Source: Deltaproteobacteria bacterium RBG_13_43_22
GTDB lineage: Bacteria; Desulfobacterota; RBG-13-43-22
Reading direction: 5' to 3'
DNA length: 64,000 nucleotides
Assembly (NCBI GenBank): GCA_001797675.1
Contig: MGQB01000001.1
Location: 137,968 to 201,967 of the forward strand
Shown: positions 16,372 to 63,216 of the stretch, piece by piece
Numbering within the stretch: position 1 is the first letter of the stretch
Layout of the letters: each line of letters begins with the position of its first letter
The notes under the pieces: model-generated
Told to the model about the DNA's origin: nothing
The model's database searches: none
Seen by the model: the letters and a program-made list of their open reading frames with translations, nothing else
Translations under genes and position numbers: made by a program

Positions 16372-16394
16372 AGATCAATCAACAACGAGAGATT

Positions 16395-47132: not shown

Positions 47133-47318
47133 CTATATTTCTTTTACTGTGATAGCCCCGGTTTCACAAACTTCAACACAGCTTTCGCAGCCCAGGCATT
47201 CGTCCATATTGACGGGCACGGCCTTATTGTCCTGAAGTTCGAAAACGCTAGTCGGGCAGGTATCCACGCAATTGGAATCTCCCGTGCACTTGTCGGCGTC
47301 AACCGTAACTTGAAACAT
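47133..47318 (-). CDS. 2x[4Fe-4S] ferredoxin
   Basis: The 61-aa form starts at MFQVTVDADKC, with GGAGGAAG 6-8 nt upstream. Cys motifs: CTGDSNCVDTCP and CLGCESCVEVCE. The ORF track's longer start at 47357 is unlikely. Confidence 0.8.
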   Translation of the reverse strand: MFQVTVDADKCTGDSNCVDTCPTSVFELQDNKAVPVNMDECLGCESCVEVCETGAITVKEI

Positions 47319-47699
47319 TGCTTCTTCCTCCTTATTCGATAGATAATTTATTGCCAAAAACCAATCAGTTACAAGTTTTTGGGATTATCCAGGTTTGGAT
47401 TGAAGGTCTTGAACCTTCAAATTAGAACGGGAGCTTAGATTATTTTTTCCCAAAGGTCAAACAATTTTTTCCCCCAAGGGAATTAAACTGGACTAATTTT
47501 AAAAAATAAATATATTATAATAGGTTAAGCTGTTCTTACTGATCGCCGTTTAACGGGACCCCAGAATAAGTCCTTTAGACCGAAGGCGTTAAAAAGATTG
47601 ACCGAATTTGTTCCTGTGGTAGATTATAAATTCTTACACACTATGATCAAAGAATTTATCTCTAACCTTTTTACTAATTGAGTCCTGTTGTGCGACCAA

Positions 47700-47800: not shown

Positions 47801-47854
47801 AGGAATTTCAAATATCTTTGGATAGACTTGAGGAAAAACAAAAGGAGGTTCCGT

Positions 47855-48580
47855 ATGCTGAATGAAAAGGAAATCCTTCGCTATGACCGGCAAATGATGA
47901 TGAACCATTTTGGCCGAGAGGGGCAGGAAAAATTAAAAAAAAGTCGGGTCATGATTGCCGGGGCCGGTGGTCTGGGTTCGGCGGCCGCCTATTATTTGAC
48001 CGCCGCCGGGGTGGGGGCCTTACGGATTGTGGACAAGGATCAGGTGGACCTTAGTAATTTAAACCGTCAAATCCTCCACTGGTCACCGGATATTGACCGA
48101 CTCAAAGTGGAATCGGCGAAGGAAAAATTGGTCAAATTAAACCCTGAGATTGATTTGGAGATCCGAAAAGACGAGATTAACGAGGGAACCTTACCCGAGT
48201 TGACGGCTGGGTGTAACCTGATCCTGGACGGCCTGGATAATTTTCCGACCCGGTATTTGATCAATCAACAGATATTACGTCAGGGGATCCCCTTTATTTA
48301 TGGGGGTATCCTGGGCATGATGGGGATGACTACCGTGATTCTTCCCGGACAAACCCCCTGTTTGAAATGCCTCTTCCCGCAAGCTCCGCCGCCTCAAAAA
48401 TTCCCGGTCTTAGGGACCACACCCGGTATCATCGGCTTGATCGAGGCCAATGAGGCCATTAAATATCTGGTCGGCTTTGGGAGTCTGCTTACCGGCCGGC
48501 TTCTGATTTATAACGGTCTGGAGATGCGTTTTTCCGAAATCCGGATTGAACCAAACCCCCAATGTCCGGTTTGCGCTTAG
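47855..48580 (+). CDS. ThiF/MoeB/HesA-family E1-like adenylyltransferase
   Basis: Preferred start MLNEKEILRYDRQ, with AAAGGAGG 8 nt upstream. Nucleotide loop IAGAGGLGS. Two CxxC pairs (CLKC and CPVC). No rhodanese domain and no adjacent ThiS/MoaD-like ORF. Confidence 0.8.
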   Translation: MLNEKEILRYDRQMMMNHFGREGQEKLKKSRVMIAGAGGLGSAAAYYLTAAGVGALRIVDKDQVDLSNLNRQILHWSPDIDRLKVESAKEKLVKLNPEIDLEIRKDEINEGTLPELTAGCNLILDGLDNFPTRYLINQQILRQGIPFIYGGILGMMGMTTVILPGQTPCLKCLFPQAPPPQKFPVLGTTPGIIGLIEANEAIKYLVGFGSLLTGRLLIYNGLEMRFSEIRIEPNPQCPVCA

Positions 48581-48709: not shown

Positions 48710-50167
48710 TTATTTAACCCTGGTGGGCGGTATGCCGGCCAGAGCCTTGGCCAGTTTCACCTTTTTATTCAGATCCCCTTCCCTAAAAATCATCACCCTC
48801 TGGGCTTGAGGAGAACCGGCCCCATGCATGGATTCCACCAAGGCCGTGCCGCCGGTCATAGACTCGATCAACCGGCCGATCTTGATGCGATCTTCGGTGG
48901 GAAAATTGGCCACCCCGGAGAAATATTTTTTCACCAAATGACCGACGTCTTCACTCTTCAGGTCGTATTCACTGGGTAAGGTGGCCAGAAATCCTCCGGC
49001 CAGGTCGGAGGCCAGACGGGCGACCTCGAAATGAAAACGGGTTGCATTATGTTTGCCCACATTGGCCAGCATGGTATCCACCATATAAGCCCCGGACGGA
49101 GTGGGCCAGCCTTCAGCCGCACAGGCAATGGCTGAGCTGTAAAGGGTTTCACCCAGATGGATCATTTCAGTCACCTTGTCCCGCACATGGGAGGCCTTGG
49201 CCGTGCCCTGAATCTGGGCCAGATAAGTCACAGCCCCGGTTAAGACATCGATTAAGCCTGTTTTACAGCCGCCGTAGTTGGCCCGGTGATGGGCAGCGAA
49301 ACGATAGACCAAGTTGCCGGTAAACTCCGTCTCACCGTTCATAAATACCCGCTCCCAGGGGACAAAGACATTTTCGAAGGCAATGACCGCCTCTCCGCCG
49401 ACCCCCCCGAAAACCGGGTTCCCGGCATCGATTCGTTCTTTGTTGTCCTTACGGTTGTCGTTGGCCTGGCGTCCGAAAATCATGGTAACCCCTGGGGTAT
49501 TAACCGGAACGGCACAGACCAGGGCGTAGTCTTTGGCTGTGGGGTCCATGGCCGTTGTGGGCATGATCAGGATCTCGTGGGAATTGACCCCTCCGGTCAT
49601 GTGCAGCTTGGCCCCCCGGATAACCAGGCCGTCTTCCCGACGCTCCACAACATGCACATATTGGTCCGGGTCGGACTGTTCGGCAGGCCCCTTGGAGCGG
49701 TCCCCTTTGGGATCGGTCATGGCCCCGACCACCATCAAATTTTCCTCTTGAATATAAGTCAGCCACTTCTTAAAGCGTTCAAAATAATCTGTGCCGTATT
49801 TTTGATCGATTTCATAGGCAACCGAATAGACGGCATTGATCCCGTCTAAACCCACACAGCGCTGAAAACAGGACCCGGTCTTCTGACCCAACACTCGTAA
49901 CAGTTTCACTTTTTTGATCAGGTCCTCCATGCCCTGGTGGACATGAGTAAACCGGCTGATGGTCTTGCCGGTCAAATGGGAGACAGCCGTGGCCAGATCT
50001 TGGTATTCCGGGTCGTTAACCAGGGCATAGGTCATAGCCGCGGCCCGGGCATGAGGGGCCGTAGCCGGATGACGGGTCACATCCTTTATCTTTTTCCCTT
50101 TATAGTAAACCACCGGGTTTATTTTTCTTAAACTACGCAGATAGTCCTGGCCGTTTTTGATCTTCAT
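48710..50167 (-). CDS. abfD: 4-hydroxybutyryl-CoA dehydratase / vinylacetyl-CoA delta-isomerase
   Basis: 485 aa. It is collinear by eye with Clostridium aminobutyricum AbfD as I remember it. Matching segments: GQKTGSCFQRCVG (two cluster Cys), YEIDQKYGTDY, GAMTDPKGDRS, HRANYGGCK (His/Cys ligands) and ESMHGAGSPQAQR. Confidence 0.9.
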   Translation of the reverse strand: MKIKNGQDYLRSLRKINPVVYYKGKKIKDVTRHPATAPHARAAAMTYALVNDPEYQDLATAVSHLTGKTISRFTHVHQGMEDLIKKVKLLRVLGQKTGSCFQRCVGLDGINAVYSVAYEIDQKYGTDYFERFKKWLTYIQEENLMVVGAMTDPKGDRSKGPAEQSDPDQYVHVVERREDGLVIRGAKLHMTGGVNSHEILIMPTTAMDPTAKDYALVCAVPVNTPGVTMIFGRQANDNRKDNKERIDAGNPVFGGVGGEAVIAFENVFVPWERVFMNGETEFTGNLVYRFAAHHRANYGGCKTGLIDVLTGAVTYLAQIQGTAKASHVRDKVTEMIHLGETLYSSAIACAAEGWPTPSGAYMVDTMLANVGKHNATRFHFEVARLASDLAGGFLATLPSEYDLKSEDVGHLVKKYFSGVANFPTEDRIKIGRLIESMTGGTALVESMHGAGSPQAQRVMIFREGDLNKKVKLAKALAGIPPTRVK

Positions 50168-50389
50168 TTGGGATGTCCTTTCATCTTCGGCGGCATCTTC
50201 AAAAATCGATGGGGGTTAACGTCAAACATAAGACGTTTCATGGTGATGTCTGGCTTTAAAATGGAGATGATCATAAAAGAAAATGCGATGAAGGGCAACA
50301 GGATATTTTGAGACTGGTAATTTTTATGGAAATTAATTACCGGTTATTCTATAACGATCACATCACGATTGTGAAGATACGATAATCCT

Positions 50390-51292
50390 ATGAGCACGCC
50401 TGAAAAAAAAATCTCATTTTTCTTCCCTTCTTTGAAAAAGGTGGGGGCTCAACCTTTCGCCCAACCAAACACCTGCGGTACTGCGGCCGTATCCGTGACC
50501 GGCACCGATTGTAGGTTGAACTGTAAACATTGCGGAGGGGTCATCCTAAAAAACATGCCGGCCGCTGAAACTCCTCCGGCCTTAAAGGAAGCGGCAGGGC
50601 GGGTGGCAGAAAAAGGCGGTCAAAGTATCCTGATCAGCGGTGGGGCAGATCAGGAGGGAAGGGTCCCCTTGTTGAATTATATCAAGATCATTAAAGAGAT
50701 TCGTTCCGAACTGGGACTGAGGGTGTTGGTCCATACCGGCTTAGTTTCTCCAAACGTGGCTGATGCTCTGGCCGAGGCCCAAATTGATATGGCCCTGGTG
50801 GATATCATTGGAGATAACCGGACCATCCGGGAGATTTATCATCTGGATGCCACGATCGGGGACTACGAACGATCCCTTAAACTACTCACGGACCGGGCCA
50901 TCCCCACGGCCCCCCATGTGGTCATGGGGCTCCATTTCGGGCAAATCCGGGGAGAACCCGAGGCGTTGAAGCTGATTGCCGGTTATCCGATAAGGACCCT
51001 GGTCCTGGTTGGATTTCGACCCATCCCCAAAACGGCGATGGCCAAAACCCCTCCCCCTCCCCCGGAGGCTATGGGAGACCTGTTTATCATAGCCCGCACC
51101 CTTTTTCCTCAAACACCGGTCGTTCTGGGTTGTGAACGTCCCCTGGGCCTCCACCGACGTAAAACCGATTGTTTGGCTGTCGAAACCGGGCTGGACGGGA
51201 TCGCCTATCCCAGCGATCTGGCCGTTCAATTAGCCGAAGACAGGGGAATAGCGATTGACTTCCATACGGATTGTTGCGCTCTTATCAAATAA
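50390..51292 (+). CDS. Radical SAM protein, about 300 aa (candidate lipoyl-synthase-like LipS-type enzyme)
   Basis: Motifs CRLNCKHCGG (CxxxCxxC) and ILISGGAD, with TIM-barrel-like periodicity. The functional guess rests only on adjacency to the lipoate-protein ligase gene. Confidence 0.6.
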   Translation: MSTPEKKISFFFPSLKKVGAQPFAQPNTCGTAAVSVTGTDCRLNCKHCGGVILKNMPAAETPPALKEAAGRVAEKGGQSILISGGADQEGRVPLLNYIKIIKEIRSELGLRVLVHTGLVSPNVADALAEAQIDMALVDIIGDNRTIREIYHLDATIGDYERSLKLLTDRAIPTAPHVVMGLHFGQIRGEPEALKLIAGYPIRTLVLVGFRPIPKTAMAKTPPPPPEAMGDLFIIARTLFPQTPVVLGCERPLGLHRRKTDCLAVETGLDGIAYPSDLAVQLAEDRGIAIDFHTDCCALIK

Positions 51293-51353
51293 AATATAAT
51301 TCTCCCATTCGATTTGAAGAACAATCAATTTTTATGATATATTGGAAGTTCAC

Positions 51354-51385
51354 TTGAATCCTCGAATCCTTGACCCCTTGTATCC
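51354..51385 (+). repeat. Tandem degenerate octamers, consensus TTGAATCC (4 units)
   Basis: Reads TTGAATCC TCGAATCC TTGACCCC TTGTATCC, preceded by CAC. It ends 37 nt upstream of the lplA-like start. Confidence 0.75.
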
Positions 51386-51421
51386 TTCTATCATCGCCCA
51401 CTCTTTGGGAGATGATCCTCA

Positions 51422-52978
51422 ATGATACGCATTATCGATACCGGATTCTTAAGCGGGGCGGAAAACATGGCCTGGGATGAGGTTTTGTTGAAAGCCCGGG
51501 CCGAGGGGATCATTCCGGATACGCTACGTTATTTGAGATTTTCGCCTCCCGTAGCCCTGGTTGGTTTTCACCAGACCGTCGCTGAAGAAATCCGAATCGA
51601 ATACTGTCGGCAGGAAGGGATCGAAATCAACCGCCGGATCACCGGAGGTGGTGCCGTTTTTTTCGATGAAGGTCAACTGGGTTGGGAGCTGATCGCCTCC
51701 AGAAAATCCATTCCCACCTGCCTGACCATGGAGGAGATCACCGCAGCGATCTGCCGGGCTGCAGCCAGAGGATTGCAAATTTTAGGGCTTGATGCCGGCT
51801 TTCGGCCCCGGAATGATATTGAAATTCAGGGTCGAAAGATCTCCGGGACAGGAGCAGCTTTTGAAGCGGATGTTTTTCTTTTTCAAGGAACCTTGTTGAT
51901 TGATTTCAACCTCGAACACCTGATTAAAGCCCTGCGTATTCCCATTGAAAAGTTGAGCCATAGGGAATTAACCTCGGCCCGGGAGCGGGTGACCAGTTTA
52001 AAAGAACAGTTGGGAGAAATCCCTCCCCTGGAAAAAGTTAAAAAGGCCCTGGAAAAAGGTTTAAGCACCGGCCTGGGGTTCCAGTTTAAACAGGGCCGGA
52101 TCACCAAAGAAGAGGAGGCCTTATTCCGACAAAAATTGTCCAAGATGCAATCGTCCGAATGGATTCAGGGTACCAGGATCCCTTTTCGGCCTCAGGAGGT
52201 ACTTCATTCCATCCATAAGGAAGACGGAGGATTAATCCGAATCGCTGTTAGGGTTGATTTAAAAAAAGAACGGATCAAAGACATCCTGATCACCGGGGAT
52301 TTTTTTATCCATCCCCAGAGGGCGATTTATGATCTGGAGACGGATTTAAAAAATACCCCGACAAGAGAATTGCATCAACGAGTGGATGCTTTTTTTAAAA
52401 AGAACTGGGTGGAACTGTTGGGGTTGAGTTCCGAAGATTTTTATCGGGCGATTCAACTGGCTTTGGATAAAATAGATTATGCTCATCTCGGTTTCACCTT
52501 TTCGGAAGCCGATTGGATGACCGCCTTTAACGGCACACTAAATGAAATCCTGGAGCAATGTGATTTGCTCTTACTGCCCTATTGCTCGAAATTACCAGAG
52601 TGTGAATATCGATATAAAAACGGCTGTGTCCAGTGCGGGCTGTGTATGATCGGTGAGGCCTTTGCCCTGGCCGAATCCAAGGGTCTAAAGGTCATGACTA
52701 TTCAGAATTACGAGCATCTGGTGGAGACCCTGGAACAAGAAAAAAGAAACGGGACCCGGGCTTATATCGGCTGCTGCTGTGATGCATTTCAGCTTAAAAG
52801 GCAGGAGGCCTTTAAAGAGGCCGGGCTGCCGGGATTGCTGATCGATATTGAAAATACGACCTGTTACGAATTGAATCAGGAAAAAGAGGCTTACCTCGGT
52901 CAATTCCAGCACCAAACTTACCTGAGATTGGGGTTGTTGGAAAAGGTTTTAAATTTAGTTACTCACAGACAGCGATAA
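51422..52978 (+). CDS. Lipoate-protein ligase A-like protein fused to a C-terminal DUF116-like Cys-rich domain
   Basis: 518 aa. LplA part: MIRIIDTGFLSGAENMAWDEVLL, NRRITGGGAVFFD and QGRKISGTGA (catalytic Lys context). C-terminal ~160 aa: LLLLPYCSKLPECEYRYKNGCVQCGLCMIGE ... GCCCDAFQLKRQEAFKEAGLPGLLIDIENTTCYEL, matching my memory of the DUF116 pattern. Confidence 0.7.
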   Translation: MIRIIDTGFLSGAENMAWDEVLLKARAEGIIPDTLRYLRFSPPVALVGFHQTVAEEIRIEYCRQEGIEINRRITGGGAVFFDEGQLGWELIASRKSIPTCLTMEEITAAICRAAARGLQILGLDAGFRPRNDIEIQGRKISGTGAAFEADVFLFQGTLLIDFNLEHLIKALRIPIEKLSHRELTSARERVTSLKEQLGEIPPLEKVKKALEKGLSTGLGFQFKQGRITKEEEALFRQKLSKMQSSEWIQGTRIPFRPQEVLHSIHKEDGGLIRIAVRVDLKKERIKDILITGDFFIHPQRAIYDLETDLKNTPTRELHQRVDAFFKKNWVELLGLSSEDFYRAIQLALDKIDYAHLGFTFSEADWMTAFNGTLNEILEQCDLLLLPYCSKLPECEYRYKNGCVQCGLCMIGEAFALAESKGLKVMTIQNYEHLVETLEQEKRNGTRAYIGCCCDAFQLKRQEAFKEAGLPGLLIDIENTTCYELNQEKEAYLGQFQHQTYLRLGLLEKVLNLVTHRQR

Positions 52979-53241
52979 GGAGGGATAGATTCTTACACCC
53001 TCATTTATATCCCACAATTTAATAAGCTGGTCTTGATTTTCTGCGATGCGCGGAAGGCTATGCTTGAGGAGCGTTTCACTTGAGGATCGTTCGTCTTCGA
53101 CGAACTTGAGGCCAAAGGCAGTTGCCTCTTCCCTCAAACGAAGTACTCCTTAAGCGAAGCGATCCTTAAACAAGTTGAACTCTGGCTCCAAGTTCCAAAA
53201 TTTCAAATATTTTGGTTAGACTTTAAAGCAGTTTCATTATC

Positions 53242-55896
53242 TTATTCCCACTCATCCAGTCCACCGGCCAAGACTGTCTGTTTAGCCGGTTGGACTGTGC
53301 GAAAGACCTGAGAAGGCGGGAATTTTTGACCATCGACGGTCAACAGGTGATCCTCGATGGAAATGCCGAAGAGGCGTTCGTTCTCCTTAAGATAAGGCAG
53401 GATCAGTTGCCAATCCTTCTCGGAGAAGGGGACGATTTCCCCGCCGTTAAGCTGTTCGGCCACTATTTTTTGATGAGGGTCCCGAATATAAATGGCCCCG
53501 CCGGAGGCCAGAGAAAAGAGATTCGCTCCGGGATAAGGCGTTTCCTGCGGAATAATATTACCCTGGTTGTCAACGGCCAAGCCGTTGACAATGACAAATC
53601 CTCCCCCGTTATGCGGGTCTCCGGCCATGAAGGATTCGGCCAGAAAATCCAGGGCTGTGCCGTTGATAACCACTTTAGGCCGGCCCACGGCATTGATCAA
53701 GGGCCGTCCGGCGGCATTGCCCAGCACATAAACCTCCCCGCCTTTGGCCCCGTAAAGAAAGGTCTGGCCCACATCGCCATGGACCACCAGTTTGCCGCTT
53801 TTAAGGATCTGCCCCAATTGGTCCTGGGCATTGCCATGGACCACGATTTCCAATCCGTCGATCCCCGAAGCCAGATAATCGCCGCTGCTCCCATAGGCGT
53901 CTATTCGGACCCCTTTGGTGTCCGGTCCCAGACCGCAGCCCAGAAACCGTTGCCCCCGATATCCATAGCCGATAAACCGTTTCCAGCCCAGTTCATAAGC
54001 CTTGACCACCAGGCGGGAATCACAGTCTTCCCCTTCGGGGGGGAACTGCTCTCCATCGACCACCAGGGTTTTTTCTCCGGCTTCCGGGGCACGAAGCATT
54101 AGACGATGGGCATAATCGATCCGGAGAAAAGGGGTTCCTTTCTCCTGGGTTAAAGATGGAATCCCGTTAAATATTTTTTCAAGCGACCGGGTGACCATTT
54201 GCAGAACGGATCGGCGGCGCTTCGTCCCTGTGGGATACCTTCGATCCAACAGCAGAGTCAATGTCTCCACCACGCCTTCCATCAGCTTTTCTTCTTTAGC
54301 CAGCGCTATCAGATGATCTAAAAAATTGTTAAGCTGAGCGTAGTCCCATTTTTCTATGGAACCCAATAAAGAAGAATATAAAGAGATAATCTTCCCGGAT
54401 TCCAATCCTTTCCTTATCTTTTGGGCCGTCGTTGCTTTTAAAGGAAAAGTCTTAAGTTCGAGGCTAAAATCAAGGGGGGTCCGGTCGGCCGGGATATCGA
54501 TAGGTCGGCCGAATTTATCCTGACAGGTCAGGTTCCAATTCCCGGAGTCCGATTCTTTGACTGAAAAAATAAAGGCCCCCCCATCGGTATAACTGCCGCC
54601 CCGGGCATTCCAATAGCGGTCGGCAATCGTGCCGAACCGGGGATCTTCCCTGGCCAAAGACTGCAAGGTGGCATCGATAGCCTGTTTTTCCGAGCAGATC
54701 AGCCCGATCTCCACTTCTCCTTTTTGCAGGGCGAAAACTTGGGGCCTGAGCATGGCCGTATCGGTGATGCCGATTAATTGATAGGTTTTTTCCCCGGTGA
54801 GATTGCGGGCAATGATGAAAAACCAAGGCCCGTCCGGGGAGCCATGGATCTGGGTAGTCTGGATCTGGCGGTAAATCCTTTGTTTTTCCACAGACAGCTT
54901 GTCAAAATCCATTTCCGTTGTCGGGGCCAGAGATTCAATGATGTATTCCAGGGGATAGCCGTAGACCCGGTTCAAGAGATCAAAGACCTGGACCGAGACC
55001 TCCGTATCCGTTAAAAACAGAGGGACTACATTTCGTTGATAAAGATATTCACTGACCGAATAATAATTGGCAAAATCCCCGTTATGGACCAGGGCCTCAT
55101 CCAGACCGATAAATGGGTGGGCTCCGCCCGGATGCCAGACCCGGCCCTTGGTGGGATAGCGCTGATGGGCAATCCAGATATGGGCCTTAAAATCATCCAA
55201 CTGATAATACTGGGCTACCTTCTCAGCATAACCGACAATCTTCAGGATCATCATGTTGCGGCCATGAGACAGGACAAAGGCTTTTTTCTCTCCCAATGAA
55301 CTATAATAGGTTTCGTTTAACCGGAAGGTGTTTTGATAAACAAATTCTTCGGCCGCTTTTTCAAGGGACAATTTTCCCAAATTTTTTTCAAGTTGAAATT
55401 TGGCGAGGACATCGGGTTGGACCTGGACGAAATAACGTTTAACCTGAGGAGGCTCAATGTCCAACCCGGGGATATCCCGAAAATCATCGACCGTCGGAAC
55501 AAAATCTTCATGAGGGATCTTAAAAAAAGGACGGACGAAACGATCTTCCAACTCCTTTAATACCGTTGGATCCAACAAGGCAATCTGGAGCAGAAAATGG
55601 GATTCCAAGGTGTTTTGATCAACCCCTAATTTCCCGGCTTCGAGCCCGACGGCGGCGATGCCGCCCCCTTTCCCATTTCCGCGGTTGTGCATCTGGACCG
55701 AAGGTTCGAAAATGTGGCGGCCCCCCACCGGGATATTACAGGCAAATCCGGTAACCCCGCAGCCCCCTTCCTCGGCCTCGGTGCGTAGAGGGAGAACGGG
55801 AAGTCCTTTGGTTTTCTCTACAAGACGGGCACGAGAATCGATAATGGCTTGGGCAATATGTTTTTGATTCATATTCAACCTATTTTTCAATTTCAT
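53242..55896 (-). CDS. Glutamate-synthase-like fusion: class II (Ntn) glutamine amidotransferase domain plus GXGXG (GltB C-terminal) domain
   Basis: 884 aa. N-terminal GGCGVTGF, IAHQRYPTKG and LVHNGDFANY. C-terminal VVHGNAQDQLGQILKSGKLVVHGDVGQTFLYGAKGGEVYVLGNAAGRPL. No FMN domain lies between them. Confidence 0.8.
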   Translation of the reverse strand: MKLKNRLNMNQKHIAQAIIDSRARLVEKTKGLPVLPLRTEAEEGGCGVTGFACNIPVGGRHIFEPSVQMHNRGNGKGGGIAAVGLEAGKLGVDQNTLESHFLLQIALLDPTVLKELEDRFVRPFFKIPHEDFVPTVDDFRDIPGLDIEPPQVKRYFVQVQPDVLAKFQLEKNLGKLSLEKAAEEFVYQNTFRLNETYYSSLGEKKAFVLSHGRNMMILKIVGYAEKVAQYYQLDDFKAHIWIAHQRYPTKGRVWHPGGAHPFIGLDEALVHNGDFANYYSVSEYLYQRNVVPLFLTDTEVSVQVFDLLNRVYGYPLEYIIESLAPTTEMDFDKLSVEKQRIYRQIQTTQIHGSPDGPWFFIIARNLTGEKTYQLIGITDTAMLRPQVFALQKGEVEIGLICSEKQAIDATLQSLAREDPRFGTIADRYWNARGGSYTDGGAFIFSVKESDSGNWNLTCQDKFGRPIDIPADRTPLDFSLELKTFPLKATTAQKIRKGLESGKIISLYSSLLGSIEKWDYAQLNNFLDHLIALAKEEKLMEGVVETLTLLLDRRYPTGTKRRRSVLQMVTRSLEKIFNGIPSLTQEKGTPFLRIDYAHRLMLRAPEAGEKTLVVDGEQFPPEGEDCDSRLVVKAYELGWKRFIGYGYRGQRFLGCGLGPDTKGVRIDAYGSSGDYLASGIDGLEIVVHGNAQDQLGQILKSGKLVVHGDVGQTFLYGAKGGEVYVLGNAAGRPLINAVGRPKVVINGTALDFLAESFMAGDPHNGGGFVIVNGLAVDNQGNIIPQETPYPGANLFSLASGGAIYIRDPHQKIVAEQLNGGEIVPFSEKDWQLILPYLKENERLFGISIEDHLLTVDGQKFPPSQVFRTVQPAKQTVLAGGLDEWE

Positions 55897-56008
55897 ACTC
55901 GCTAATGATAAAGCCTATAAAGGATTTCTTGATGCTGAATAAAAACAAAAAGCGATACTCGATTCTGGATAAAGACAATCAAGTATCCACCATCCAGTAT
56001 TCAGTAGT

Positions 56009-57523
56009 TCACTCCAACTCCCCTTCAATCTCTTCGGCCTTTATATAATCCAGATGGGCCAGGCAATCCCAGCGGCCGACCAGATCCCGGATATGGGTAA
56101 TGCCTAATCTTTTAAGGATGAATCTCAATTGTTTCATCCAGGCCGCATAAACATTGATGATCCGCTGGGTCCCCCAATCCTGGGTGATCAACTGGGTCAG
56201 TTCCGGATCGGTGGTGGCGATCCCCCGGGCACATCCCCTTCCGGATTCGCAGTTATGACAGCGCAGGCATTCCAGGGCCACCATATCGGCGGTGCCCAGG
56301 CAAACCCCATTGGCACCCAGGGCAATGATCTTGGCCACATCATAGCCGGTCCGTATCCCGCCGCTGGCGATCAGGGTTAGGTTATCCCGGATACCCTCTT
56401 CCTTAAGAAATTTATGAACTTTGGGGACGGCATACTCCAGGGGCATGGCAATATTCTTTTTGGCGATATCCGGGGCCGCCCCAGTGCCACCGTAGCTGCC
56501 GTCCAACTGAAGGATATGGGCCCCGGCAAAATAGCTCCCCACGGCCACCATATCCACATCATTCGGGGTGGAGACCTTTACGGAAACCAAAGCCCGTGGA
56601 TTGGTCGCTTTGATCCAGTCGATATGTTTTTTGTGGTCTTCCACGGAATAGACACTATGAAAGGGGAAGGGAGAAAACAGAGAACTTCCCACCACCGCCT
56701 CCCGCATGCGGGCTACCTCCGTGGTGACTTTGTCGCCCAGGAGATGTCCGCCCAATCCGGGTTTGGCCCCCTGGGCATATTTAAATTCCACGATGCGCAC
56801 CCGCTGGATGGTCTCTTCTCGCACCCCGAACAGACCGGTGGCCACCTGGGTAATAATGTGATCGTCGTACGGTTTAAGATCGTCCGGATATCCTCCTTCC
56901 CCTGTACAGCAAAAGGTCCCCCAGGCCGCTGCCGCCCGGACCCGGGAGAGGATGGCGTTGATACTCACCGAACCGAAGGACATCCCTCCCAGGTAGAAGG
57001 GGATCGGCAGGGAGATGGAGGGCCGTTCGTCTCCGGTACGGTTAAGATCCAGGGACAGGCAAATATCTTCATCCGGGCAGTCTAAGGCCTTGTTGGGAGG
57101 GAAGACCAGCCGGAGTTTATCAAAACCACCCCCCGAATCCCCGGTCTTGTAATTGAGCCCCTGATACGGGATTTCTCCGGTTTCGGCCATATACCAGGTA
57201 CTGGCCAGTAGATCGGCCGTCCATCTCCTGTCGCCCAGGACCTCGAAAGAGGGATTGGGATTCATGGTGATGGCATCCTTGGGACAGCGGGCAATACAAT
57301 AAAATTCATTCTTTTGGCAGGCCGGTCCCAGGCAAAGGAAATCCTTTCCGGCCTTGGGTCGTTTGGCCCCCGGCTGATAAACCCCAAAAGGGCAAAGGTT
57401 CAGACAAAGGCCACAATTGTCACAATTCTTACCGATGACGATACGGAACTTGCTTAAACCATGGCGAAAACGCGTTGGTGCCGGTTTCACCTCAGGAGGA
57501 ATAAATTGAGAAACGTCAAACAT
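56009..57523 (-). CDS. Glutamate synthase FMN-binding (GltB domain 2) protein with N-terminal 2x[4Fe-4S] ferredoxin domain
   Basis: Preferred start MFDVSQF at 57523, with GAGGG 5 nt upstream. The 42 extra residues in the ORF track translate a repeat element. Motifs: CDNCGLCLNLCP, CIARCP, GGMSFGSVS, YAQGAKPGLGGHL, LQLDGSYGGTGAAP and IASGGIRTGYDV. Confidence 0.85.
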   Translation of the reverse strand: MFDVSQFIPPEVKPAPTRFRHGLSKFRIVIGKNCDNCGLCLNLCPFGVYQPGAKRPKAGKDFLCLGPACQKNEFYCIARCPKDAITMNPNPSFEVLGDRRWTADLLASTWYMAETGEIPYQGLNYKTGDSGGGFDKLRLVFPPNKALDCPDEDICLSLDLNRTGDERPSISLPIPFYLGGMSFGSVSINAILSRVRAAAAWGTFCCTGEGGYPDDLKPYDDHIITQVATGLFGVREETIQRVRIVEFKYAQGAKPGLGGHLLGDKVTTEVARMREAVVGSSLFSPFPFHSVYSVEDHKKHIDWIKATNPRALVSVKVSTPNDVDMVAVGSYFAGAHILQLDGSYGGTGAAPDIAKKNIAMPLEYAVPKVHKFLKEEGIRDNLTLIASGGIRTGYDVAKIIALGANGVCLGTADMVALECLRCHNCESGRGCARGIATTDPELTQLITQDWGTQRIINVYAAWMKQLRFILKRLGITHIRDLVGRWDCLAHLDYIKAEEIEGELE

Positions 57524-57527
57524 GATA

Positions 57528-57677
57528 CCCTCGTAAAAGGCCATCAACTGGGACGGCACAGTAAAAAGTCCAGAGACAAGGCGCGCAAGTCCTGAGGAAA
57601 GAGGCGAACATTGAAGTACGCTGCATTGACGAAGGATGTAGCGCAACACCGCCTCTAGGCTTTTTTACGAAGCCGTC
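57528..57677. mobile_element. MITE-like palindromic element, copy 2 (TCGTAAAA-type inverted termini)
   Basis: The left end CCCTCGTAAAAGGCC (57528-57542) pairs with the reverse complement of GGCTTTTTTACGAAGCCGTC (57658-57677), with a 1-2 nt indel. It fills nearly the whole 163-bp gap between two co-directional genes. Confidence 0.5.
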
Positions 57678-57686
57678 GGACATAGG

Positions 57687-59069
57687 TTAATTCCTTTTAT
57701 GCAAAGGGAGAAAAATCTCCCTTTCCAGGTCTTCAAAAAACATGGCCCGGCCCATTTCACCCCTAAGGCGCCGGGCTTCCCGGATGCCCATAGCCCCCAT
57801 GACTTCCAAAAGCTGGTTGTACCAGCCGGCAATCAGGTTCCGGATCCGGGCCTGCCCCCGCGGCGGGTAGATCTGGGCGATATTCACCGGGCAGGGAATG
57901 CCTTCGGCACACCTCCGGCAAACACGGCACTCCAAAGCCACCAGGAGGGGGATATCCACGGTAACGGCATCGGCTCCGCAAATAATCAGCTTGGCCAGGT
58001 CTTCGGCCATGGCCACACCGCCCCCGGCTAAAAGGGTAATCTGATCCCGGAACCCGTTTTTAACCAGATGTAAATGGACCTCCTTGATTCGATCTTTGAT
58101 AAATAAGGGGGCTTCTCCCTGGTCGCGGCCGAATTCATCGGCCATAAAGTGAAGGATTTCCAATCCAGATTGAGTTAGTTCCAAGGCCCGGTCCTTGGCC
58201 TGAGGATTCAAGGGAATTCGGACAGCGATAACGGCCTCAGGGTTTATCCCTTTTAGCCATTTCTGTATTTCCAGAACCTTGAGTCCATCTGGGATTTCTA
58301 TCAGGCGGAGCTTTTTAAGGATTTCTTTATCGAACCCTTCGGGATCCCCGGTCAGATAGAGCATGATGTGATTCAAATAGCGTTGCAGACTCGGGTGCCA
58401 ATCCTCCTGGGTAATAATGGAAAAGGTATTGATCTTCTTTGCCGCCCGGAGCAAGGTATGATTGATGCGGTCCCGTGGGGGAGACCAGGGCAGTATGTCA
58501 AAGATGATCGGTATAGGGATTTCAACGGAAGGATAGGGCGGAGATAAAAGGTTTCCCAGGGTATCAAACTCAAGGGCCTGGTGTTTTCGTCCCAGATCGA
58601 CCTGGGTGCTGATATACTCCCGTCCAAGAATCCCATCCCGGGTGGGTCGAACGATTTCGGACATATCGGTCCACATGGCGTCAAATCCCGATCCGGAAAA
58701 AGGCCCCCCATACCCGGCACCGGAAACCGGGATACGGCCGGTCTCGGCCTGAAACCAGAGTTTGGAGATGATCTCTGGGGTCCAGTAATGGTCTCCGAGA
58801 TTTTTATAGTCGGGGTTTAAGGCCTTATGGATTAGCCGGTTGGGACAATTCTGGACACATCGAAAACAGTCTTTGCACAAACTGTCCAAAGAATCGGACA
58901 TCAAGCGAGAATCGAGTCCCCGTTTATCATAAACCCCGTAAACACATTCCCGTTTGACGCATTTAGGGCATTTAAGACAGCCCTCTTCCCAAGCAATGAC
59001 CCCGGACCGTATCACTGTGGGAAAACGATTGGGCACCGGGGCGGTATGAATATGATATTTGACTGGCAT
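57687..59069 (-). CDS. Glutamate-synthase-related Fe-S/TIM-barrel protein (divergent GltB domain-2 paralog)
   Basis: 460 aa. Cys clusters CLKCPKCVKREC, CKDCFRCVQNCP and CRVCRRCAEGIPCP. C-terminal LLAGGGVAMAEDLAKLIICGADAVTV resembles the end of the FMN barrel. The QGAKPG-type motif was not seen. Confidence 0.5.
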   Translation of the reverse strand: MPVKYHIHTAPVPNRFPTVIRSGVIAWEEGCLKCPKCVKRECVYGVYDKRGLDSRLMSDSLDSLCKDCFRCVQNCPNRLIHKALNPDYKNLGDHYWTPEIISKLWFQAETGRIPVSGAGYGGPFSGSGFDAMWTDMSEIVRPTRDGILGREYISTQVDLGRKHQALEFDTLGNLLSPPYPSVEIPIPIIFDILPWSPPRDRINHTLLRAAKKINTFSIITQEDWHPSLQRYLNHIMLYLTGDPEGFDKEILKKLRLIEIPDGLKVLEIQKWLKGINPEAVIAVRIPLNPQAKDRALELTQSGLEILHFMADEFGRDQGEAPLFIKDRIKEVHLHLVKNGFRDQITLLAGGGVAMAEDLAKLIICGADAVTVDIPLLVALECRVCRRCAEGIPCPVNIAQIYPPRGQARIRNLIAGWYNQLLEVMGAMGIREARRLRGEMGRAMFFEDLEREIFLPLHKRN

Positions 59070-59162: not shown

Positions 59163-60086
59163 TTAAACCGTGGGTCTCGGCATCAGCCCGGCCTGTTCCA
59201 CGACTTGGGGAACGGCCTCTTCCCATTCTATGGCCATGATATGAACACCATGGACGCCTTCCATTTCTTTAAGGGCCTGGATGGTCTCGATGCTGATTTT
59301 AATCCCTTCCTTTCTTTGTCCTTTAGCCGGAACCGATTTCATGCGCCGGATCAAGGGTTCTGGGATGTCCATCCCGGCCACTTGGTTTTTAATGTACTCA
59401 GCCATTTTAGCTGATTTTAAAGGCGTAATCCCCCCCAAAATATAAACCTTTTCATGGAGGCCTCGGTCCCGCACCTGACTCATCCATTCTTTAAACCGAT
59501 CCAGATTATAAATGCACTGGGTTTGAATAAATTCAGTGCCGGCCTTGACTTTCTTGGCCAGCCGGATCACCCGGTAAAAAAAGGGGTCTGCAAATGGGTT
59601 TGCGGCTGCGCCGATAAAAAGATAGGGGGGAGGGCTGACGGCCTCGCCGCCGATGATTTGACCCTCATCCCGCATCCGGCGGACCGTCTGTATTAATTGG
59701 ATCGAATCCAGATCAAAGACTCCGATGGCCTGAGTCTGATTGCCGAAGGATTGATGATCGCCGCTCAAACAAAGGACATTCCGGATCCCCAGGGTCGAGG
59801 CCCCCAGGAGGTCGGATTGGAGAGCAATGCGGTTCCGGTCCCTGACCACCATCTGGAGCACCGGATCGAGTCCTTCCTGAAGCAGGAGGACGCAGGCCGC
59901 CAGGCTGGAGAGACGAACGACTCCGGTCTGGTTGTCGGTGACATTAACACTATCCACATAACCCTTAAGTATCCGGCCTTTTTTAATTACGGCTTCGGGA
60001 TCGGCCCCTTTGGGAGGGCCGCATTCGGCGGTGACGGCAAATCGGCCGGCGGCTAATACGTTTTTAAGTTGGCTTTCAATTTTCAA
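59163..60086 (-). CDS. metF: Methylenetetrahydrofolate reductase (anaerobe-type MetF)
   Basis: 307 aa from a TTG start that overlaps the metV stop. Motifs: FAVTAECGPPKGADPE and SVNVTDNQTGVVRLSSL. TIM-barrel layout typical of MetF. Confidence 0.8.
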   Translation of the reverse strand: MKIESQLKNVLAAGRFAVTAECGPPKGADPEAVIKKGRILKGYVDSVNVTDNQTGVVRLSSLAACVLLLQEGLDPVLQMVVRDRNRIALQSDLLGASTLGIRNVLCLSGDHQSFGNQTQAIGVFDLDSIQLIQTVRRMRDEGQIIGGEAVSPPPYLFIGAAANPFADPFFYRVIRLAKKVKAGTEFIQTQCIYNLDRFKEWMSQVRDRGLHEKVYILGGITPLKSAKMAEYIKNQVAGMDIPEPLIRRMKSVPAKGQRKEGIKISIETIQALKEMEGVHGVHIMAIEWEEAVPQVVEQAGLMPRPTV

Positions 60087-60751
60087 TTCTGTTGATCCTC
60101 CCTGACGATTTTTCGAGGTCCGGCCCCTTCTTTTTTTGACCAGTCAGCCGGGGCATAAACCTCCTCCAGAAGATCCAGTTGATTCCTGTCCTCCAGTCGG
60201 GTGACGATCAGATGCCAGGCACAAGGAGTCTCCGGATTGACTTCACACTTGCCGTCCTGAGACCCGCCGCAAGGTCCGTTAAAGATCTGTTTGGCACAGC
60301 GGGTGACCGGACAGATATCGGCAAAAAGATGGAGACGGCAATCACCGCAGCCCCGGCAGTTTTCCAGCCAGAGTCCGGCTTCTTTGGTTTGTCCCAGGAA
60401 GGAGGTGTTCAGGGCCGGCAGGATGGGAATATTGGGAAAAACTTCAGCCACGGCCTGGACCCCGGCCCCGCAGGCCAAGGAAAGGACGGCATCGTATTGA
60501 TCGATCAACCCGGTCAGTCGATCGATAAATTCATACACACATTGACGCTCCAGGGTCATTTCCCTGGTTTCCAACTCCTTGGTGGTCATCCGGGCGTCCA
60601 TCCGTAGGGCCGATCCGAGAAGTCCGACCTCCTTTTCTCCTCCCGCAGCACATTCGCCGACACAGCTTGCGCACCCCACCACCAGCACTTTCTTAAAAGG
60701 CAAAATCATGGCAATGATTTCATCCAGAGGTTTTCTTTCGGCAGTAATCAT
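60083..60751 (-). CDS. metV: MTHFR C-terminal-domain protein (MetV-type Fe-S/Zn subunit)
   Basis: 222 aa. Motifs: VVGCASCVGECAAGG, CRGCGDCRL and FNGPCGGSQDGKCEVNPETPCAW. Confidence 0.7.
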   Translation of the reverse strand: MITAERKPLDEIIAMILPFKKVLVVGCASCVGECAAGGEKEVGLLGSALRMDARMTTKELETREMTLERQCVYEFIDRLTGLIDQYDAVLSLACGAGVQAVAEVFPNIPILPALNTSFLGQTKEAGLWLENCRGCGDCRLHLFADICPVTRCAKQIFNGPCGGSQDGKCEVNPETPCAWHLIVTRLEDRNQLDLLEEVYAPADWSKKEGAGPRKIVREDQQN

Positions 60752-60870
60752 TGGTCTCTATTCTCCATTTTTTTATTCAATTAACATCTCTTTCTGTTTG
60801 GGCTTCCTCCATTATATGTATATGATTCGGATTTGAAGATTCCTAAATCCAATGGTTTTTACCTTTTCAC

Positions 60871-60902
60871 TTGGGCCCTTGAACCCCAGAATCCTTGAAT
60901 CC
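60871..60902 (+). repeat. Tandem degenerate octamers, consensus TTGAATCC (4 units)
   Basis: Reads TTGGGCCC TTGAACCC CAGAATCC TTGAATCC, preceded by CAC as at 51351. It lies between mvhD and metV. Confidence 0.75.
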
Positions 60903-60909
60903 TTTTCTC

Positions 60910-61329
60910 TTACAACCGGCTCAACAGGGAATGTCCCTTAACGGGGGCTCCCTCCAATAATTCCCGGGTCAACAGATCAATTCTTTTTGGCAAAGGAGGG
61001 TCAATGTTTATTAGAATCAATCGTTCCGGGTCCAGGCCGATTTCCCGGATCAAGTTTTGGGCAAAGGCAATCCTTTTACCGGCCCTTACATTTCCTTGTT
61101 GATAACGGCAACTCTTTACAGGACAGGTGATCAAATAGACCAGATCCGCTCCTGACTCAAAGGCATGCAGGAAGTGGAGCGGTTCTATCCGCCCGCTGCA
61201 GGGCAAAGGGAAAAATTTGATACCGGGGCCTAATTCTTTTTCGATGACCCGTCGATTGCTGTCCTGATCCGGGTCCAATTGCTGGCAAAAAAAAATGGCC
61301 ACATTTAACTCCAGATTTTCTTTATTCAT
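60910..61329 (-). CDS. mvhD: MvhD-like (methyl-viologen-reducing hydrogenase delta subunit family) Fe-S protein
   Basis: 139 aa. Motif: FFCQQLDPD ... FPLPCSGRIEPLHFLHAFESGADLVYLITCPVKSCRYQQGN. Confidence 0.8.
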   Translation of the reverse strand: MNKENLELNVAIFFCQQLDPDQDSNRRVIEKELGPGIKFFPLPCSGRIEPLHFLHAFESGADLVYLITCPVKSCRYQQGNVRAGKRIAFAQNLIREIGLDPERLILINIDPPLPKRIDLLTRELLEGAPVKGHSLLSRL

Positions 61330-61887: not shown

Positions 61888-63216
61888 TTACAAAATCGGC
61901 AAATATTTATCCAATTCATACCGGCTGACATGGGTCCGGTAGTGGTCCCATTCAATCTCTTTATTGGCGATGAATTTATAAAAAATATGATCTCCCAGGG
62001 CTTCTCGAACCAGGGTGCTTTTCTTAAGCTCTTCGACGGCCGCATAAAGGTTTCCCGGGAGGGAATTGATTCCTCGGGCCTCCCGTTCTCCAGGGGTCAT
62101 TTCAAAAATATCTTCTTCCACCGGATCGGGTAGGGGGTAGTTTCCTTCGATACCGGCCAGTCCGGCGGCCAATTGTACGGCAAAACAAAGGTACGGGTTG
62201 CAGGCCGGATCGGGGGAGCGGAATTCAATGCGGGTGGCCTTTTCTTTTCCGGGTTTATACATGGGCACCCGAATCATGGTGGAACGGTTTCTTCTGGCCC
62301 AGGAGACATAGACCGGGGCCTCGTACCCGGGGACCAATCGTTTATAGGAATTCACCCATTGATTGTTGATGGCCGTCATTTCCCGGGCATGACGCATGAG
62401 CCCGGCGATATAACACTTGGCAATCGGGGAGAGATGGAAAGGATCTCCAGGTTCAAAAAAGGCGTTTTTTTCGCCTAAAAACAGGGACTGGTGGGTATGC
62501 ATGCCGCTGCCGTTTTGTCCGAAGATCGGTTTGGGCATAAAGGTGGCATAGACCCCTTTGGATCGGGCAATCTCTTTGACGACCAGACGATAGGTCATAG
62601 TCATATCGGCCATGGACAACCCCTCGGCATAACGCAGGTCGATTTCATGCTGGCTGGGGGCCACCTCATGGTGGCTGTATTCGACTTTGATACTCATGGA
62701 CTGCAGGGCGAAAATGGTCTCCCTTCTCAGGTCTCCACCCAAATCGAGTGGACGGGAGTCGAAGTATCCGCCAAGGTCCAAAAAATTGGTTTCCTTACTA
62801 TCCTGAAAGTAAAAATATTCCAGCTCCGGGCCGATATAAAAAGTATATCCTTTCTCCCTGGCCTTGGCCAACAGCCTTTTAAAAGCATACCGAGGATCAC
62901 CGGGATAAGGGGTTCCATCCGGTTGGAGGATGTCGCAGAACATACGGGCTACTGGTTGTTCTCCTGATCTCCAGGGAATCATCTGAAAGGTGGCCGGGTC
63001 CGGCTTGGCGATCATATCGGACTCTTCGATCCGGGCGAATCCTTCAATGGAAGAGCCGTCAAATCCCATGCCCTCGGTCATGCCTTCCTCCAATTCCGAA
63101 GGGGTTACGGCAAAGCTTTTTAACAATCCCAGGATATCGGTGAACCAGAACTGGATAAAACTGATATTTTTGTCCTTAACCAGACGGAGCACATCTTCGG
63201 TCGATCGGCAATTCAT
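61888..63216 (-). CDS. glnA: Glutamine synthetase type I
   Basis: 442 aa. Motifs: IQFWFTDILGLLKSFAV, GFDGSSIEGF, NGSGMHTHQSLF and RVPGYEAPVY-like LVPGYEAPVYVSWARRNRS. Confidence 0.9.
   Translation of the reverse strand: MNCRSTEDVLRLVKDKNISFIQFWFTDILGLLKSFAVTPSELEEGMTEGMGFDGSSIEGFARIEESDMIAKPDPATFQMIPWRSGEQPVARMFCDILQPDGTPYPGDPRYAFKRLLAKAREKGYTFYIGPELEYFYFQDSKETNFLDLGGYFDSRPLDLGGDLRRETIFALQSMSIKVEYSHHEVAPSQHEIDLRYAEGLSMADMTMTYRLVVKEIARSKGVYATFMPKPIFGQNGSGMHTHQSLFLGEKNAFFEPGDPFHLSPIAKCYIAGLMRHAREMTAINNQWVNSYKRLVPGYEAPVYVSWARRNRSTMIRVPMYKPGKEKATRIEFRSPDPACNPYLCFAVQLAAGLAGIEGNYPLPDPVEEDIFEMTPGEREARGINSLPGNLYAAVEELKKSTLVREALGDHIFYKFIANKEIEWDHYRTHVSRYELDKYLPIL

Follow-up and report, generated by a model that had tools for sequence, protein, structure and literature searches.

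The window analysed here, a stretch of 64,000 nucleotides (nt) from Deltaproteobacteria bacterium RBG_13_43_22, contains two neighbouring genes of the LipS1/LipS2 pathway, the route of lipoate synthesis in many archaea and in anaerobic or sulfur-metabolising bacteria. The first, lipS1, encodes a LipS1-type radical S-adenosylmethionine (SAM) lipoyl synthase, and the second encodes a ligase of the Lpl(AB) type to which a cysteine-rich DUF116 module is fused. These are very probably two genes of a dispersed four-gene LipS1/LipS2 system. The pathway, LipS1, and the protein family, the last under uninformative database names, are known; the recognition of a ligase-borne module with eight cysteines appears to be new. 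The best overall explanation, to which we give an even chance of being right, is that the window holds half of the dispersed system and that the module acts as a relay. The two genes and their parts are as follows (aa, amino acids; ORF, open reading frame; HMM, hidden Markov model).

50390 to 51292, + strand: lipS1, LipS1-type radical SAM lipoyl synthase, 300 aa (ORF and NCBIfam LipS1).
50510 to 50533, + strand: radical SAM motif CX3CX2C of LipS1 (C41-x3-C45-x2-C48, in CRLNCKHCGG), 98% conserved in 60 orthologues.
51131 to 51277, + strand: auxiliary [4Fe-4S] ligand region of LipS1 (C248 and the pair C295-C296), by homology to TkLipS1.
51293 to 51421, no strand: spacer of 129 nt between lipS1 and the ligase gene (ORF bounds).
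51422 to 52978, + strand: Lpl(AB)-DUF116 fusion, a lipoate/octanoate-protein ligase with a C-terminal Cys-rich module, 518 aa (ORF, HMMs, and model).
51458 to 52063, + strand: LplA/B catalytic domain, aa 13-214 (Pfam PF21948, LplA-B_cat, E 1.3e-47).
52211 to 52465, + strand: probable LplB-like accessory domain, aa 264-348 (near-cutoff NCBIfam and Pfam scores, PDB match, and model).
52475 to 52975, + strand: DUF116 module, aa 352-518, with an alpha/beta flavodoxin-like core and eight invariant Cys (PF01976 and AlphaFold2).
52583 to 52645, + strand: Cys-rich loop C388-x5-C394-x7-C402-x2-C405-x2-C408, including a ferredoxin-like CxxCGxC; all five Cys are invariant.
52772 to 52864, + strand: second Cys set, G-C-C-C (C451 variable, C452 and C453 invariant) with the invariant C481 in TCYEL (alignments).

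The ORF coordinates agree exactly with an earlier note on this DNA, which had placed a radical SAM gene of 300 aa 129 nt upstream of a gene of 518 aa. All of the motifs quoted there were found: CRLNCKHCGG, RRITGGGAVFFD, GRKISGTGA, LLLLPYCSKLPECEYRYKNGCVQCGLCMIGE, GCCCDAF, and NTTCYEL. The note had described the first part of the larger protein as LplA-like and the last as DUF116, and both descriptions hold: LplA-B_cat covers residues 13-214, a probable LplB-type domain follows at residues 264-348, and PF01976 matches residues 376-483 with 38.3 bits against a gathering score (GA) of 25. In the catalytic domain, the RRxTGGGA motif (R71, R72, T74, and G75-G77) and K139 were invariant in 78 sequences. 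The catalytic-type Lys139 is encoded at 51836-51838, within GRKISGTG. The PDB sequences nearest to this domain were 1vqz and Thermoplasma acidophilum LplA (2ars/3r07; E ~1e-25), with Escherichia coli LplA at 9e-11.

An LplB accessory domain separates ligases from octanoyltransferases, and the fusion very probably possesses one. The region scored 61.6 bits against LplB NF053749 (cutoff 65) and 23.5 bits against Lip_prot_lig_C PF10437 (cutoff 24), matched T. acidophilum LplB (3r07_C) at E 1.4e-7, and forms a folded beta/alpha domain in the AlphaFold2 model. The full-length model had a predicted local distance difference test score (pLDDT) of 87.3 and a predicted template modelling score (pTM) of 0.82. 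As a whole, the fusion fell below the ligase cutoffs, at 159.7 bits for TIGR00545 (cutoff 280) and 133.9 bits for LplAB NF053751 (cutoff 550).

The lipS1 product scored 39.7 bits against Pfam Radical_SAM (cutoff 29.5). Its best NCBIfam match was LipS1 NF053742 (E 1.7e-64; 218.1 bits, under the equivalog cutoff of 230), the runners-up being NrdG2 (23 bits) and BioB (22.6 bits). The shortfall is marginal: the two bona fide cluster-encoded LipS1 proteins that were tested scored 218.4 (locus L007) and 233.2 (L046). The window protein is 57% identical to the LipS1 of a full cluster (L001) and scored 413 bits against the LipS1 HMM built here. In Thermococcus kodakarensis LipS1, residues C230, C276, C277, and H159 are required for activity (Neti 2022, PMC9585515). 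They correspond to C248, C295, C296, and H176 of the window protein, positions conserved in at least 95% of the 60 orthologues; H176 (50915-50917) lies upstream of the C248/C295/C296 region. With a LipS1-type HMM match and all of the published cluster ligands kept, the radical SAM protein is of the lipoyl-synthase kind, as had been suggested earlier. By homology, the window gene is LipS1-type, and its product is predicted to insert the C6 sulfur into 8-mercapto-octanoyl-lysine.

Related loci were drawn from two samples, both of them biased. The fusion-centred sample comprised the best 80 genomic loci matching the window fusion in species-representative genomes and favours window-like ligases. 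The LipS2-centred sample comprised metagenome contigs whose LipS2 is 47-93% identical to that of L007. ORFs at these loci were crude calls, with the longest start taken and shadow ORFs included. Protein searches covered 5.8 billion proteins, and the HMMER census of the module covered 1.84 billion representatives. Residue conservation was evaluated using alignments of 60 LipS1 orthologues, of 14 and 78-80 fusion sequences, and of 19 module-only sequences including the Aquificae variant described below.

The fusion is genuine. Both LplA-B_cat and DUF116 were present in 119 of the best 120 protein matches (47-100% identity, 500-560 aa), and all of the best 80 genomic loci (80/80) encoded the full-length fusion, matched over query residues ~3-513. 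An assembly or frameshift artefact, for which the earlier note had allowed, was rejected on the grounds that the architecture is kept in >100 clusters and 80 genomes. The full-length fusion occurs in >100 protein clusters from at least 10 bacterial phyla and several archaeal lineages. Bacterial hosts include Thermodesulfobacteriota, Chloroflexota, Actinomycetota, Nitrospirota, Nitrospinota, Planctomycetia, Sumerlaeota, Bacillota, and Chloroherpetonaceae, and archaeal hosts include Asgard archaea, Bathyarchaeia, Thermoplasmata, Nitrososphaeria, and Methanobacteriota. The nearest loci belong to Thermodesulfobacteriota (76-79% identity), and one contig of an independent Joint Genome Institute (JGI) metagenome assembly, L008, is 100% identical to the window region. 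In the LipS2-centred sample, the visible ligase bears the DUF116 module at 39 of 40 loci. Databases name these proteins "DUF116 domain-containing protein" (the NCBI name) or "lipoate-protein ligase A".

In distant members, a cluster recurs that consists of a radical SAM gene, the fusion, a gene for a flavin adenine dinucleotide (FAD) protein resembling geranylgeranyl reductase (GGR), and a second radical SAM gene, often beside GcvH, DsrE, TusA, and CCG-domain genes. NCBIfam identified the partners as LipS1-like (218-233 bits), LipS2-like (192-209 bits; cutoff 270), and geranylgeranyl-reductase family (LipT). Partner genes were counted using HMMs seeded from the LipS1, LipS2, LipT, and GcvH of distant full clusters, in a flank-complete subset of 47 non-redundant fusion loci with at least 5 kb on either side. 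The HMMs detected the following near the fusion:

LipS1: 43 of 47 loci.
LipS2: 44 of 47 loci.
LipT: 44 of 47 loci.
LipS1, LipS2, and LipT together: 42 of 47 loci.
GcvH/LbpA: 22 of 47 loci.

The HMM matches, the conserved ligands, and these shared clusters place both window genes in a lipoate assembly of ligase, LipS1, and LipS2, in line with the earlier note. The same note had gone further in suggesting that the pair may be a compact variant of the pathway. On such a reading, LipS1 and the fusion would suffice and DUF116 would replace LipS2 and/or LipT. What speaks for such a variant is that LipS2, LipT, and GcvH are missing from the 64 kb and that two relatives (L006 and L089) also have no lipS2 nearby. 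A cryptic LipS2 among the other radical SAM genes of the window, at 16356-17504 and 19500-20927, was considered and rejected, as neither matched the LipS2 HMM at E<=1. However, LipS2 acts first, at C8 of octanoyl-lysine, and LipS1 takes only its 8-mercapto product, being inactive on the octanoyl substrate (Neti 2022, PMC9585515). Because LipS1 acts only on this intermediate, LipS1 and a ligase are not self-sufficient. Moreover, DUF116 has no radical SAM motif, LipS2 and LipT accompany the fusion at ~90% of loci, and a 69%-identical relative, L007, has a complete lipS1-lpl-lipT-lipS2 cluster. With orphan lipS2 genes on window-like contigs as well, one of them in the same metagenome, the compact pathway is most improbable.

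The orphan lipS2 genes were found on contigs L092-L095, which are the contigs most like the window's clade in the LipS2-centred metagenome scan. They are 70-71% identical to the LipS2 of L007 and have no lipS1, ligase, or lipT gene nearby. Contig L095 comes from the same metagenome as L008, the window's twin; its lipS2 sits among pyrD, pyrK, pgeF, and ABC exporter genes. Ga0214473_10000792 is the candidate lipS2 contig for the window organism in metagenome 3300031949. The tetranucleotide correlation between L095 and the window is 0.92; the window's own halves correlate at 0.94. Since such loci exist, including the window-like L095, the data suggest that the window organism has lipS2 elsewhere and that its system is dispersed, not reduced.

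The closest relatives also bear on whether the lineage is losing the pathway and the window genes are turning into pseudogenes. In L006 and L089, which are 80% identical to the window, lipT is displaced, no lipS2 is nearby, and toxin-antitoxin/abortive-infection genes have been inserted between the ligase gene and lipT (AbiEii and ParE/Phd at L006:11605-12952; AbiEii at L089:8854-9378). Among relatives of 76-80% identity, lipS1 is split in L006, the fusion in L011 and L089, and lipS2 in L011. However, these split genes may reflect errors in assemblies that are probably long-read and liable to frameshifts, both window genes are intact with every family-invariant residue kept, and an identical copy occurs in the independent assembly. 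Decay is thus very unlikely. The 129-nt spacer of the window differs from most related loci, in which the lipS1 and ligase genes overlap or abut. A promoter/terminator scan of 50100-53300 gave no signal over shuffled background, the spacer had no Rfam match, and Rfam and tRNA scans of the window were empty.

Two further kinds of gene were observed around the fusion in related loci. The commonest extra neighbour, present at 28 fusion loci (e.g., L069:5738-6892), encodes an HdrD-like protein of ~390 aa with two ferredoxin motifs and CCG domains; it is accompanied by genes for GcvH-like, multihaem cytochrome/NarI-like, GlcD-like FAD oxidase, and DsrE proteins. This company suggests that in Desulfobacterota, too, the cluster works for a redox system centred on GcvH/LbpA. 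In addition, a second, plain Lpl(AB)-type ligase of ~340-380 aa, lacking DUF116, is encoded near GcvH-like genes (e.g., L051:5980-7035). Plain and DUF116-fused ligases occur together at L017, L029, L043, L051, L053, L054, L068, L069, L082, and L108, which suggests different acceptor or substrate roles for the two.

Judged from its sequence, the module appears to be essentially a compact, divergent DUF116 subfamily living on or beside lipoate ligases. Taken alone, it scored 41 bits against PF01976, as compared to 38.3 bits within the full protein, and 19 of 19 diverse modules exceeded the GA of 25. The eight cysteines C388, C394, C402, C405, C408, C452, C453, and C481 (window numbering) are invariant in bacteria, archaea, and the Aquificae variant. 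The Cys-rich loop has no regular secondary structure in the AlphaFold2 model, and its sole nearby likeness by hhalign was the ferredoxin motif of an HdrD-like neighbour. Modelled alone with a deep alignment, the module reached a pLDDT of 91.8 and a pTM of 0.88, with strands alternating with helices. This flavodoxin-like model agrees with an independent prediction, made using HHpred, of DUF116 as a flavodoxin-like domain that binds metal and transfers electrons (Makarova 2015, PMC5898192), the one comment on DUF116 found in print. A Foldseek comparison of the model with the PDB yielded nothing at E<=1e-3, the best hits being generic flavodoxin/Rossmann folds with a template modelling (TM) score of ~0.4. 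Similarly, the sequence profile of the module found nothing significant in the PDB (best E 1.6). Kinship with the CCG domains of HdrB/HdrD was rejected at an hhalign probability of 1.8%.

A word-index search with the module alone returned 14 matches, mostly fragments, and was replaced by the exhaustive HMMER census. The census yielded 188 clusters at 50% identity, 153 of them at E<=1e-10, and nearly all of fusion length. Stand-alone genes of this subfamily were rejected: the short representatives are fragments starting inside the linker between LplB domain and module, and one of the proteins, P0122, is a piece of the L089 fusion gene, which is broken into three ORFs. The only separate-gene form found was a DUF116-CdhB gene adjoining the ligase gene in Aquificae. 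The census, a phmmer search, did not reach canonical DUF116 members.

The genomic partners of the module are flavoprotein-type. Among the 73 loci with enough sequence downstream of the fusion, lipT lies directly 3' of it on the same strand at 61, regardless of the order of lipS1 and lipS2, and adjoins it on the opposite strand at three more. At two loci, ligase, DUF116, and LipT form a single chain of ~900 aa (906 aa at L016:9968-12688 and 893 aa at L022:9989-12670, both on the + strand). Protein P0145 and fragment P0124 are further LipT fusions, and the triple architecture was confirmed using Pfam and NCBIfam. In Aquificae, the C-terminal position after DUF116 that LipT takes elsewhere is occupied by an unrelated CdhB-like domain (PF02552) with a nucleotide-binding fold. 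Thus, a 667-aa protein of Hydrogenobaculum sp. Y04AAS1 (L170:10001-12004; P0283), annotated as CO dehydrogenase beta subunit, consists of a divergent ligase half, DUF116, and CdhB. Proteins P0250 and P0257 are also fused to CdhB, P0250 (1117 aa) having two tandem ligase units before the module. At L171:8847-11035 and L172:8856-11044, DUF116-CdhB is a gene of its own directly after a plain ligase gene; with 464-473 bits against an HMM of fused-ligase halves, the product of the latter is a ligase of the same subfamily.

The two synthases are also found joined. Single LipS2-LipS1 chains are encoded at L024:7945-9999, L104:7992-10040, and L109:5726-7259. These chains are 682-684 aa long, with CX3CX2C motifs near residues ~45 and ~415; the N-terminal half matches the LipS2 HMM and the C-terminal half the LipS1 HMM. 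Taken together, the LipT, CdhB-like, and LipS2-LipS1 fusions speak for ligase, module, reductase, and synthases forming one physical assembly.

It is highly likely, as far as sequence can tell, that the ligase loads octanoate or lipoate, that LipS2, encoded elsewhere, adds the C8 sulfur, and that LipS1 adds the C6 sulfur. Specifically, the ATP-dependent Lpl(AB)-type ligase would attach octanoate (or scavenged lipoate) to a lysine of a GcvH/LbpA-type acceptor, LipS2 would insert sulfur at C8 of the ligated octanoyl chain, and LipS1 would then insert sulfur at C6. The eight invariant cysteines of the module would ligate one or two Fe-S clusters, and the module would act as a one-electron relay from a flavoprotein-type partner to the radical SAM clusters of both synthases, LipS1 and LipS2. 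We put Fe-S binding with electron relay to the synthases at slightly under an even chance. The electron source would be LipT, the GGR-family FAD protein, in most lineages and the CdhB-like domain in Aquificae; through the tether, the ligase would be kept close to reductase, synthases, and acceptor. Held more tentatively is the broader proposal that the module may be the physiological electron conduit of the LipS1/LipS2 pathway, within a ligase-centred complex that accepts interchangeable flavoprotein-type inputs. The earlier note had imagined DUF116 as either an Fe-S or a sulfur-donor module on the ligase. Of these, the Fe-S coupling is plausible and has comparative support; electron transfer is better supported than sulfur donation because flavoprotein-type partners are found coupled or fused to the module again and again.

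Sulfur donation figures in an alternative in which the module is an Fe-S/sulfur carrier that, after each turnover, restores the auxiliary [4Fe-4S] clusters sacrificed by LipS1 and LipS2. Regeneration of LipA by NfuA/IscU provides a precedent, and the module is Cys-rich and attached to the enzyme holding the acceptor protein. LipS1 and LipS2 each contain an auxiliary [Fe4S4] cluster, the sulfur source in classical lipoyl synthases (Neti 2022, PMC9585515). Nevertheless, a carrier would leave the near-obligate adjacency or fusion to LipT and the fusion to CdhB-like domains unexplained, and genes for cysteine desulfurases or scaffolds are not among the recurrent neighbours. Known carriers, moreover, have few cysteines and labile or bridged clusters, whereas eight cysteines on a rigid core look more like the ligands of stable clusters. 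We consider the carrier unlikely.

The same eight cysteines would be enough for two Zn(Cys)4 sites, and the module might be a structural Cys/Zn docking domain for LipS1, LipS2, LipT, or the acceptor, or a redox sensor that gates the ligase. The full-length pTM of 0.82 suggests that the module is packed against the ligase, and the fusions among pathway components suggest a complex. Yet CxxCxxC spacing and a CC pair typify Fe-S sites more than Zn ribbons, and the sole profile likeness is to a ferredoxin [4Fe-4S] motif. The partners fused C-terminally are redox or nucleotide-binding modules, and members of the wider DUF116 family are associated with redox proteins such as sulfite/nitrite reductase (PMC5898192). 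On balance, a docking or sensing role is distinctly unlikely.

Several observations weigh against the relay within a dispersed system. By tblastn and profile HMMs, LipS2, LipT, and GcvH/LbpA are absent from all 64 kb, and the orphan lipS2 is tied to the window organism by sample and composition only. Both window proteins score below the NCBIfam equivalog cutoffs (LipS1, 218 versus 230 bits; ligase, 159.7 versus 280 bits). The AlphaFold2 model contains no cofactors and does not tell Fe-S from Zn, and a redox role for CdhB-like domains is so far no more than a proposal. Finally, a ligase of ~360 aa without DUF116 is enough for the characterised lipS1-slpl(AB)-lipT-lipS2 system of proteobacteria to function, even when placed in E. 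coli; the module is therefore not universally required.

With respect to known systems, the window genes resemble the published sLpl(AB)-LipS1/LipS2(-LipT) pathway (Cao 2018; Jin 2020; Neti 2022, PMC9585515; Tanabe 2023, PMC10332631) in the cluster ligands of LipS1, in the LplA and, very probably, LplB domains, and, in relatives, in the lipS1-lpl-lipT-lipS2 cluster near GcvH/LbpA, CCG-domain (sHdr-like), and DsrE/TusA genes. They differ from it in that the window keeps just lipS1 and the ligase gene together and that the ligase has an extra DUF116 module of ~167 aa, unlike the ~360-aa sLpl(AB) of H. denitrificans. DUF116 itself (PF01976, COG1852, arCOG02078) was described as Cys-rich, with CxxCxxC, a predicted flavodoxin-like fold, and predicted electron transfer (Makarova 2015, PMC5898192), features shared by the module. 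Canonical members are stand-alone proteins with two N-terminal transmembrane helices, whereas the N-terminus here is a soluble ligase and the full-length model has no long hydrophobic helix before the module. LplA_LipA_fuse (NF053790) likewise joins a ligase to an Fe-S enzyme of lipoate assembly, LipA. The ligase half of the window protein scored 122 bits against it, far under the 800-bit cutoff, and the partner is DUF116, which is not a radical SAM protein, instead of LipA.

In E. coli, NADPH:flavodoxin reductase and flavodoxin reduce LipA and BioB. We propose an analogy in which LipT would correspond to the FAD enzyme and DUF116 to the small flavodoxin-fold one-electron carrier, although the module has no sequence kinship with flavodoxin, would use Fe-S instead of flavin mononucleotide (FMN), and is covalently attached to the ligase. 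NfuA and IscU regenerate the auxiliary cluster of LipA and are similar in being accessory Fe-S proteins that keep a lipoyl synthase active; they differ in lacking homology, in Cys pattern, and in having no flavoprotein coupling.

The searchable literature contained no recognition of DUF116 on the ligase of this pathway and no proposal of a lipoate role for DUF116. None of the literature naming DUF116 concerned lipoate, and COG1852, PF01976, and arCOG02078 appeared only in Makarova 2015 (PMC5898192). DUF116 is not mentioned in the text or the searched supplements of Tanabe 2023 (PMC10332631), whose ligase phylogeny mentions the same archaeal recipient phyla. Because the phyla coincide, DUF116-bearing ligases were probably analysed in the 2023 paper without the extra domain being noted. 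The searched supplement text of that paper, consulted for the LipT status of Aquificae, does not name those genera.

For LipS1 and LipS2, the reductant on record is dithionite, used in vitro (Neti 2022, PMC9585515), and LipT has so far been proposed in published pathway work as a candidate electron supplier. The module offers an experimental handle on both DUF116 and this reductant. Nearly every cluster in the two biased samples has a module-bearing ligase, and gene order and fusions link the module to LipT. If the relay is correct, the module would be an Fe-S domain with no relative of solved fold, and DUF116, a 25-year-old domain family, would have its first function for any member. The way in which ligase, reductase, and the two synthases are arranged about the acceptor protein may be explained by the module as well. 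Annotations such as the "CO dehydrogenase beta subunit" of Hydrogenobaculum would need correction.

The remainder of the window contains several other groups of genes. Upstream of lipS1 are genes for a 2x[4Fe-4S] ferredoxin (47133-47357, - strand), a ThiF/MoeB adenylyltransferase (47828-48580, + strand), and an HpaB-family protein (48710-50167, - strand). The last is divergent from lipS1, and its product may resemble 4-hydroxybutyryl-CoA dehydratase in type; the order of the ThiF and HpaB genes is kept in the twin contig L008. Downstream of the fusion, 53242-59069 (- strand) holds three glutamate-synthase-like genes side by side, split in the archaeal manner and encoding proteins of 884 aa (GATase and GXGXG), 546 aa (FMN domain with an N-terminal 2x[4Fe-4S]), and 460 aa (partial Glu_synthase match). 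These are followed at 59163-61329 (- strand) by genes for a MetF-like methylenetetrahydrofolate reductase, an unassigned 222-aa ORF, and an MvhD/HdrA-like Fe-S protein, a layout that recalls the electron-bifurcating MetFV-Hdr-Mvh modules of anaerobes, and at 61888-63216 by a glutamine synthetase gene. At the other end, 1791-38267 is a run of very large ORFs (800-1145 aa), several with PMT_2/YfhO-type glycosyltransferase and F5/8 type C (discoidin) domains and two (1791-4919 and 7787-10366) with no Pfam match. The run also includes a B12-binding radical SAM gene (19500-20927), a radical SAM gene (16356-17504), and a gene for an AMP-binding enzyme (14134-15465), and resembles an island for modifying surface glycans or glycoproteins.

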